Shown: positions 18,500-18,614 of the stretch, piece by piece | How the letters are laid out: every line of letters starts with the position of its first letter | Position numbering within the stretch: the first letter of the stretch is position 1 | Source of the DNA: an uncultured Gammaproteobacteria bacterium | GTDB lineage: Bacteria > Pseudomonadota > Gammaproteobacteria > CAWJOP01 | DNA: 64,000 bases | NCBI GenBank assembly: GCA_963844535.1 | Contig: CAWJOP010000008.1 | Span: 196,801-260,800, forward strand | Reading direction: 5' to 3' | The notes under the pieces: model-generated | What the model saw: only the letters and a program-made list of their open reading frames with translations | What the model was told of the DNA's origin: nothing | Database searches by the model: none | Program-made: the position numbers and the translations under genes

Positions 18500-18614
18500 T
18501 TGACAATTCATATCAAGCCCCACGTCCCGCGGCTTGTCCGCGGGATCCATGGATCCCGCCGGATAATACCGCGAACAAATCGCGGCACGTCGAAGGTTTT
18601 GGGCCAATTGTCAA
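18500..18614. repeat. family A REP-like palindromic element, long form, with terminal TTGACAATT/AATTGTCAA
   Basis: TTGACAATTCATATCAAGCCCCACGTCCCGCGGCTTGTCCGCGGGATCCATGGATCCCGCC..GCGAACAAATCGCGGCACGTCG..GGGCCAATTGTCAA. It is an imperfect long palindrome lying upstream of the 18706 gene. Confidence 0.55.

Follow-up and report, generated by a model that had tools for sequence, protein, structure and literature searches.

A probably lineage-restricted family of REP-type palindromic units in an uncultured gammaproteobacterium

A 64,000-nt stretch of DNA from an uncultured Gammaproteobacteria bacterium (GenBank assembly GCA_963844535.1, contig CAWJOP010000008.1, positions 196,801 to 260,800; the whole stretch is called the window here) carries a family of GC-rich palindromes, family A. 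We interpret family A, with a probability of roughly 0.6, as lineage-restricted palindromic units of the repetitive extragenic palindrome (REP) type, which are non-autonomous and copied in trans. An earlier examination of the letters alone (the sequence-only reading) had proposed a lineage-specific family of REPs or MITEs (miniature transposable elements with inverted repeats), and this proposal held up: the copies form one alignable family with a conserved hairpin, which is also found outside the window and is rare elsewhere. Family A is a new example of a well-known type of selfish DNA and not a new kind of system. What makes it resemble REPs and REP doublets forming hairpins (REPINs) is the layout of hairpin plus tag, together with copies that are heterogeneous and lack target duplications.

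The unit is ~30-48 nt long and reads 5'-(CTGCC)T/G-ACGT-G/C-CCGCGR-YTTGT-YCGCGG-N-ATCCA, in which a short head is followed by an 8-bp GC-rich stem, a 5-nt loop, and a short ATCCA tail. Properly aligned, 14 units taken from the window and three other sources fall together as a single family with the hairpin conserved. In this alignment, 96.4% of the cells of the 8-bp stem are paired, compared with 23-59% when the partners are slid, and the score observed was reached by 0 of 500 shuffles. Two stem pairs are changed on both sides, one of them between A-T and G-C (8:6 units) and the other among G-T, C-G, and G-C; since the 14 units form two subtypes, these two-sided counts do not represent independent events. 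The first stem pair is T-A in all 14 units, and the second is G-C, C-G, or G-T, never A-T. The head ACGT is likewise invariant (14/14) and is followed by G in nine units, C in four, and T in one, while the ATCCA tail is present in 10 of the 14. CGTAGG, the reverse complement of CCTACG, occurs in nine of the 14 units, and GTCG or GTGG takes the place of GTAG in the others. Type-1 units additionally carry a 6-nt tandem duplication (TGCCGC TGCCGC), and some bear a 12-nt duplication of the loop and 3' stem.

The whole window was scanned with blastn-short, an nhmmer profile of the unit, and a covariance model with filters off. All five sites singled out by the sequence-only reading contain related sequence beyond chance, as judged by 28-mer and 16-mer shuffles, nhmmer, and the covariance model. 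The 28-mer core matches exactly at 22224-22251 (- strand) and with one mismatch at 49022-49049, where 100 shuffles gave an expectation of 0; the central 16-mer, GGGATCCATGGATCCC, matches exactly at 18542-18557 and with one mismatch at 22210-22225 (0.1 expected). The three search methods are concordant on six strong units with E values of 1e-10 to 6e-8, located at 15765-15808, 18516-18553, 18559-18596, 22169-22207, 22214-22257, and 49016-49059. The palindrome at 36703-36730 is a weak match to the covariance model (E 0.5-0.75), and none of the three methods found a further family A copy in the 64 kb beyond the five loci. Chance or low complexity as the origin of the similarity is ruled out by the 28-mer and 16-mer counts, together with the count of the 15-nt ends described below, each set against its expectation. 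Although 82% of the window is coding, each of the five loci is intergenic (p ~2e-4). The elements encode nothing; some lie inside operons, and others follow genes or occupy divergent promoter regions. Their GC content is 56-73%, compared with 37% for the window, and six of the eight CCGCGG sites in the window fall within them, the other two lying within one terminator.

Three forms can be distinguished, namely singletons, head-to-head inverted pairs, and a 118-128-bp pair whose caps are 15-nt terminal inverted repeats of MITE type (GGNCTGTTGACAATT). Singletons are found at 15767 and 49018 in the window and as two copies elsewhere (L002b and L004), and all five dimers (18494, 22145, L005 2259-2355, L002 130-287, and L031 913-998) have their ACGT heads pointing outward. 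The head-to-head pairs fold as one long hairpin, of which L005 2259-2355 is the strongest (z -12.6 for single-strand folding against shuffles), and the single units fold less strongly (z -2.7 and -1.6).

The short form that had been placed inside the mla operon proved to be a single unit between mlaD and mlaC. This copy (15765-15836, + strand; covariance hit 15765-15808, E 6e-8) separates the mlaD stop from the mlaC start and consists of a type-1 unit, internally duplicated for TGCCGC and TATTGTCCGCGG, and a further ~20 nt from the element interior; its portion 15794-15836 matches the interior of the full L002 copy at 84% identity. Read on the + strand, the template strand of the mla operon, the unit is head-first. 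The second singleton (49016-49059, + strand; covariance model E 2.5e-9) is a type-1 unit without the 12-nt 3' duplication. It is situated 16 nt downstream of the stop of a PLD/NucT-like gene (49075-49710, - strand) and upstream of a gene for a 714-aa protein on the same strand as the PLD/NucT-like gene, so that it too runs head-first on the template strand. The orthologous copy on L004 differs from it by exactly one extra 12-nt block (TATCGTCCGCGG) within flanks that are 94.6% identical, implying that slippage generates the size variants. The 6-nt and 12-nt duplications, and an interior deletion, are all products of internal slippage. The deletion concerns the copy at 36682-36748, between convergent csaA-like and avidin-like genes, where the part belonging to the family, placed earlier at 36700-36750, narrowed to a 22-nt perfect palindrome (CCTACGTGCCGCGGCACGTAGG, 36706-36727; fold z -4.8) plus outer flanks. 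Its flank 36682-36720 is 87% identical to L002 109-147, and a 49-nt alignment of the window with L002 is 82% identical. On account of these shared outer flanks, at 82-87% identity with those of the L002 130-287 copy, the palindrome is read as a collapsed pair; it corresponds to a full head-to-head pair like L002 130-287 that has lost its interior by deletion at the CCGCGG repeat.

Two long forms are present in the window. The first (18494-18620; fold z -3.6) comprises two inverted capped units, 18516-18553 (+) and 18559-18596 (-), detected by the covariance model, and occupies the divergent region between mlaF and a gene for a 778-aa protein. Its 15-nt terminal inverted repeats are GGCGTATTGACAATT at 18494-18508 and AATTGTCAACAGACC at 18606-18620, and its right boundary was set by comparison with the sister-strain contig L091, in which homology stops at the junction of GTTTAA and GGTCTGTTGACAATT. 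The second (22145-22262; fold z -5.4) joins a type-2 unit, 22169-22207 (+), to a type-1 unit, 22214-22257 (-), in the divergent region between an abhydrolase gene and a DUF2282/BufA gene, and has one capped end, the left one (AGGGCCTGTTGACAATT, 22145-22161). The description of the long forms as palindromes centered on GGATCCATGGATCC applies to 18494-18620 only, the symmetry center of 22145-22262 being the loop at ~22203-22210. Similarly, TTGACAATT terminates 18494-18620 at both ends and 22145-22262 at the left end only.

Family A is not confined to the window, which would have counted against the sequence-only reading: non-orthologous copies were found on contigs L002 and L005, two more in the gene of protein P0241, and a pair on L031. 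The type-1 pattern ACGTGCCGCNGCCNNGANTTNTTNGCGG matched four contigs in the JGI metagenomes. Three of the matches are genuine and come from one sample, Ga0116226 (L002, L004, and L005), and the fourth, L003, was rejected as a GC-rich chance match within coding DNA. L004 is orthologous to the window; L002, which has two copies, and L005 are not. The same pattern had no match in 185,579 species-representative genomes, a set that does not include the source genome. The covariance model found no new copies in 1.51 Mb from 92 relatives' loci, neither unit type matched the viral contigs, and Rfam gave no match in the window at gathering thresholds. Moreover, the plasmid collection contained no match to the L005 palindrome, the core strings had no match in the literature searched, and the 42-aa frame of 18493-18618 had none among 1.84 billion representative proteins. 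Peptides from the six frames of the elements led, among the matches listed, to a single protein, P0241, which is encoded on a 655-kb contig and is a 78%-identical ortholog of a 679-aa open reading frame (ORF) on L002. P0241 bears a complete capped long form in frame, near-identical to 18494-18620 and adding ~45 residues, and this insert is absent from the L002 ortholog. Family A sequence thus lies within effector-like protein genes at residues 509-553 and 673-698 of P0241 (698 aa) and at L002 6318-6392. The 679/698-aa protein has a C-terminal membrane segment, and its last ~20 codons and stop are supplied by a family A unit.

A distant source, L031, belongs to a metagenome-assembled genome (MAG) whose MlaE is 65% identical to that of the window. 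It holds one pair between lptC and lptA, in which a 27-nt stretch, ACGTCCCGCGGCTTGTCCGCGGGATCC, is identical to window 18521-18547. Compared with the window, MlaE identity is 77-79% in Candidatus Aquirickettsiella MAGs and 65-75% in other Legionellales/Coxiellaceae-type MAGs, from which we infer that the host is probably an uncultured member of the Legionella/Coxiella group.

Contigs from the sister strain, whose proteins are 96-98% and whose DNA is ~95-98% identical to the window, cover three of the family A sites, and these sites are not occupied in the same way. Between the hydrolase gene and bufA, L087 has near-identical flanks, lacks the 22150 copy, and carries instead an element of a second palindromic family, family B, with outer ends GGGCTGTTCAA and a flanking 10-nt direct repeat, AGAAAATAAA. 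Between mlaD and mlaC, window positions 15751-15832 are replaced by family B within the same flanks in L091, L092, and L093, which come from three samples, and in two relatives with MlaD 80-82% identical (L094 and L095) the genes are separated by a 13-14-nt spacer only. Profile and covariance scans found no element in the mla loci of more distant relatives. At the third site, between mlaF and the 778-aa gene, L091 has an alcohol dehydrogenase gene in place of the 18500 copy; the site is a rearrangement point rather than a clean empty site, as window 18057-18641, with two repeat elements, stands opposite L091 1529-2642, with the dehydrogenase gene. The adjoining 778-aa low-complexity protein (18706-21042) has internal 162-nt repeats at 19996-20157 and 20539-20700 and is only 76-86% identical to its sister-strain counterparts, from which it also differs in size. 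Presence or absence at orthologous sites and replacement of one family by the other indicate that both turn over on the time-scale of strain divergence, families A and B being gained, lost, and replaced over that interval.

Family B is also palindromic. Its core, CCGTCATTGCGAG...CTCGCAATGACGG, shows a CGTC tag followed by a stem that opens with AT. Copies lie at 26032-26175 and 35253-35410 in the window, at L087 1617-1805 and 2846-2990, and at L091 4850-5020. The convergent gap that separates the 778-aa gene from the hydrolase gene holds a full family B element in L087 and only a 30-nt remnant (21116-21145) in the window. At two of the three orthologous sites, the window holds family A where the sister strain holds family B, and this shared occupancy may reflect either how little permissive intergenic DNA there is or targeting by a shared mechanism. 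It is conceivable, although we would not expect it, that families A and B are interchangeable hairpin cassettes, perhaps along with other palindromic families, placed by one site-directed mechanism in the same intergenic hot spots. If a single enzyme did recognize the common end, or else hairpins tagged ACGT/CGTC, the machinery that mobilizes CGTC-type REPs could come to light in this lineage. Should sharing of sites and outer ends between unrelated palindromic families be general, it would suggest that they are inserted by a common mechanism.

The two long copies in the window do flank the pair of genes for the 778-aa protein and the hydrolase, as the sequence-only reading had noted. However, they do not make a composite unit: L087 has the gene pair without the 22150 copy, and L091 has the alcohol dehydrogenase gene at the 18500 site, so a composite transposon was rejected. 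An integron attC-like site was also rejected because the ends do not fit RYYYAAC/GTTRRRY.

The capped ends extend beyond family A. The 15-nt end GGNCTGTTGACAATT matches the window five times (1.1 expected), three times on family A and twice on an unrelated 164-bp MITE, and the outer end GGGC(C)TGTTNACA is common to the long forms of families A and B and a third MITE. The small forms at 15767 and 49018 have no terminal inverted repeats. The 164-bp MITE (26263-26426) has 25-nt terminal inverted repeats (AGGGCCTGTTTACATTTGATTTGCC) that are 96% complementary, and it begins with 15 nt matching the family A long-form outer cap. The GGNCTGTTGACAATT ends resemble those of IS5/IS903, which serves as a lead and not as a test. 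No parent insertion sequence (IS) for the long-form ends was found in the window or in the plasmid collection, which also gave no match to the 164-bp MITE. In addition to the TTGACAATT cap, the outer modules joined to the core include a AAGTTGRGAAAGATCTCTTCYTG flank and, in the L002 130-287 copy (L002a), an AT-rich self-complementary interior.

The caps allow a different account, in which the capped 118-128-bp MITE would be the true mobile element, moved by a DDE transposase acting at the GGNCTGTTGACAATT ends, and the naked units and pairs would be its decay products. Three capped copies (18494-18620, 22145-22262 at one end, and P0241), the identical end sequence on the unrelated MITE at 26263-26426, the similar end GGGCTGTTCAA on the L087 family B copy with its 10-nt direct repeat AGAAAATAAA, and the polymorphism of the long form between P0241 and L002 are all consistent with this account. 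Two size classes are known for QMITE2 of Coxiella burnetii as well, and the full-size and small elements there have been given the same explanation of mobile form and decay product (PMC5896051, Wachter et al. 2018). However, neither 18494-18620 nor 22145-22262 has flanking direct repeats, and it is the hairpin core rather than the cap that is best conserved across copies and genomes. Furthermore, the copies on L005, L002a, and L031 are complete symmetric pairs without a trace of the cap, and L002a and the 36706 copy have another outer module in common, which makes the cap look like one of several add-ons. We consider it unlikely, on balance, that the capped form came first.

Another possibility is that the hairpins are structural signals in RNA or DNA selected by the host, such as mRNA stabilizers within operons, Rho-dependent or factor-assisted terminators, or nucleoid-protein sites, inherited vertically and not mobile. 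Such a role would suit the naked units that stand after or between same-strand genes (mlaD and mlaC, the PLD and 714-aa genes, lptC and lptA, add and queA, and the end of the 679-aa ORF and thyA), the compensatory changes that preserve the stem, and the single orientation relative to transcription of all three independent singletons. It would also suit the identical ATGCCGCGG stem in a true bidirectional terminator at 21058-21098. The short forms themselves had been thought capable of termination, which is not borne out: no T-run follows the stems at 15767, 36706, and 49018, so they are not intrinsic terminators of the usual type, and a scan of 18000-22400 found no terminator-like site at the elements. 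The terminator at 21058-21098 (A7-ATGCCGCGGAGATTTTATCTCCGCGGCAT-T7) separates the convergent 778-aa and hydrolase genes; its stem contains the TGCCGCGG octamer seen in family A units and gives a weak score with the unit model. A function as a -35 box, suggested earlier for TTGACAATT, was likewise not supported, as it is part of no promoter-like match and lacks a partner -10. The sole promoter-like match linked to an element is TTGAGA-18-TAAGAT on the - strand (22169-22140), facing the hydrolase gene, in a region that has fewer such matches than its shuffles.

The strand of the hairpins also bears on a host role. G-T wobbles occur on the head-first strand in eight cells, against A-C in ~2 cells by reading of the alignment, and in the three independent singletons (3/3) the head-first strand is the template strand and not the mRNA. 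Because of the wobbles on this strand and its position as template, a role at the DNA level is weakly favored. For host-selected signals, it is thus unhelpful that the wobble pairs sit on the strand that is not represented in RNA. The lack of T-runs counts against such signals too, as do the variable presence between sister strains, the replacement of copies by an unrelated element, the absence of any hairpin in the 13-14-nt spacer of relatives with 80-82% MlaD identity, and the presence of copies in divergent promoter regions and within coding sequence. We therefore regard vertically inherited host signals as improbable.

Under the preferred interpretation, family A would be selfish DNA that is not autonomous, the enzyme that copies it in trans being encoded outside the window. 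For the naked units and pairs, the most likely mover would be a REP-associated tyrosine transposase (RAYT) or other HUH-type transposase recognizing single-strand hairpins; for the capped form, a DDE insertion-sequence transposase recognizing the GGNCTGTTGACAATT ends would be more likely. Effects on neighboring genes, such as hairpins in the mla mRNA or the hexamer pair facing the hydrolase gene, would be by-products. A search for the RAYT or IS200-like gene that might accompany the repeats revealed neither a RAYT gene (Y1/HUH, PF01797) nor an IS200-like one among the ~57 ORFs of the window, and no transposase or RAYT domain was detected in the ORFs adjoining the copies on L002, L005, and L031. 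One might also suppose that the units spread chiefly as landing sites of a site-specific insertion sequence of the IS110/IS1111 type, through partnership with that element. This idea draws on analogy with QMITE2, whose REP part contains IS1111 at 20 of 21 loci (PMC5896051). Neither the window nor the 38.7 kb examined from sister-strain contigs has an IS110-family or other transposase gene, however, and no unit is interrupted, so that such a partnership seems very improbable.

Several observations weigh against lineage-restricted REP-type units copied in trans. No transposase of any kind is encoded among the ~57 ORFs of the window. Inspection of both long forms revealed no direct repeats flanking 18494-18620 or 22145-22262, and no family A copy was seen to have a target-site duplication or a clean empty counterpart. 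The copies are heterogeneous, at 83-94% identity with indels, and so give no sign of a recent burst; known loci total only ~10. In the classical RAYT-type REPs of Escherichia coli and Pseudomonas putida, GTAG is placed on the 5' side of the hairpin. Family A is the mirror image of this arrangement, since on the strand where its CCTACG head reads GTAG, that string comes 3' of the hairpin. In addition, the tag ACGTG is commoner than ACGTC, and at two of three orthologous sites one strain carries family A and the other family B, which simple random transposition leaves unexplained.

For annotation, the family matters in two ways. It marks assembly break points, as a short-read contig from the same sample as the window (Logan contig L001) ends inside the 22145-22262 copy, at 22183, and it also marks the places at which repeat DNA makes up operon spacers, promoter regions, and even protein termini. 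Its main value is as a tractable REP-type case with visible turnover between strains a few percent apart.

Other repeats and genes were noted in the window. Inverted repeats of 105 nt with 99% complementarity (33709-34285) flank a DUF559 (Vsr-like endonuclease) gene located at 33831-34187. A gene-less copy of these repeats at 18074-18406 adjoins the 18500 element, and their outer part contains a CGTC-1-like motif, TGTCATTCCCGCGAAGGCG. Within the gcvT coding sequence, a 127-nt palindromic element (11146-11272) has 28-nt arms that are 100% complementary. L091 lacks ~114 nt at this site, and GcvT has 401 aa in the window compared with 385 aa in L091, which makes it an in-frame intragenic repeat insertion of the type seen in Rickettsia palindromic elements (RPEs). 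The genes gcvPB (7739-9332) and mbnB (22836-23475) are each split into two or three ORFs in the window but are whole in the sister strain, at 518 aa (L091) and 297 aa (L087), respectively, so they are either true pseudogenes or assembly frameshift errors. The AT-richer right third of the window contains four pairs of 130-160-nt direct repeats with 87-89% identity, at 44504-45053, 50048-50208, 52902-53060, 55265-55396, 57755-57886, 59629-59774, and 61523-61681. The genes near them look defense- or mobile-associated, including DUF3800, HEPN plus nucleotidyltransferase, YhcG nuclease, and PLD nuclease genes.

Comparing family A with known systems, the likeness to RPEs, which are palindromic repeats in frame inside protein genes, is limited to the long form that adds ~45 residues in frame to P0241. 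Family A is mostly intergenic, whereas this single in-frame case concerns a low-complexity, fast-evolving protein. Bacterial interspersed mosaic elements (BIMEs) of E. coli are mosaics of REPs and other short motifs, and family A likewise combines a REP core with varied outer modules. There is, however, no sequence relation between the two, and the family A copy number seen is small.

Family A and the REPIN/RAYT system are both made of short GC-rich extragenic palindromes, present as singlets and inverted doublets and heterogeneous in sequence, and a GTAG string occurs in most family A heads. However, the family A GTAG is 3' of the hairpin on the GTAG-reading strand, where it pairs within the dimer stem, and some units bear GTCG or GTGG instead. 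REPINs are described as mostly stable in position, whereas family A copies vary between close strains. Moreover, a RAYT gene is present neither in the window nor in the ORFs examined next to other copies. Given the orientation of the tag and the lack of a RAYT in the sequence examined, membership in the GTAG/RAYT class fails.

QMITE2 offers a likeness in overall design. It is a 150-190-bp element with 7-11-nt direct repeats and is a target of IS1111 (PMC5896051). Its full-size form has terminal inverted repeats, its small forms lack them and are "essentially REP elements", and most copies are intergenic or in 3' untranslated regions, sometimes overlapping the 3' ends of ORFs (PMC5896051). Family A likewise has a full-size form with inverted repeats and small REP-only forms, folds into strong palindromes, and contributes the ends of the 679-aa and 698-aa ORFs, which finish inside a family A unit; judged by protein similarity, the hosts also have their broad bacterial group in common. 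In contrast, the family A long forms measure 118-128 bp, no direct repeats were found around them, and there is no IS in the window. This comparison is one of layout, not of C. burnetii element sequence, and the supplements of the QMITE2 paper (PMC5896051) contained no matching strings.

The CGTC-tagged REPs, exemplified by CGTC-1, to which Neisseria dRS3 and Rickettsia RPE-6 correspond, are described as having a CGTC, TGTC, or CCTC tag, an 8-9-bp stem whose first two pairs are A/T, and a 4-5-nt loop (PMC3733652, Di Nocera et al. 2013). They have a short unpaired 3' tail, mostly CCA, and dimers that are mainly head-to-head, are not known to have an associated transposase, and coexist with GTAG-type REPs in C. 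burnetii (PMC3733652). Family A differs in its tag (ACGTG in nine of the 14 units, with four having ACGTC and one ACGTT) and in its stem, where only the first pair is A/T and the sequence is pure CCGCGG. It resembles the class in having a tag, an 8-bp stem, a 5-nt loop, a tail that ends in CCA (ATCCA in 10 of 14 units), and dimers with tags outward (5/5), and the lack of a known transposase for the class is paralleled by family A, for which none was seen. Comparing the two by description and not by consensus sequences, it becomes apparent that family A agrees with the class in layout, tail, and dimer type and partly in tag and stem rule. Among the published layouts compared here, that of the CGTC-tagged class is the closest to family A.

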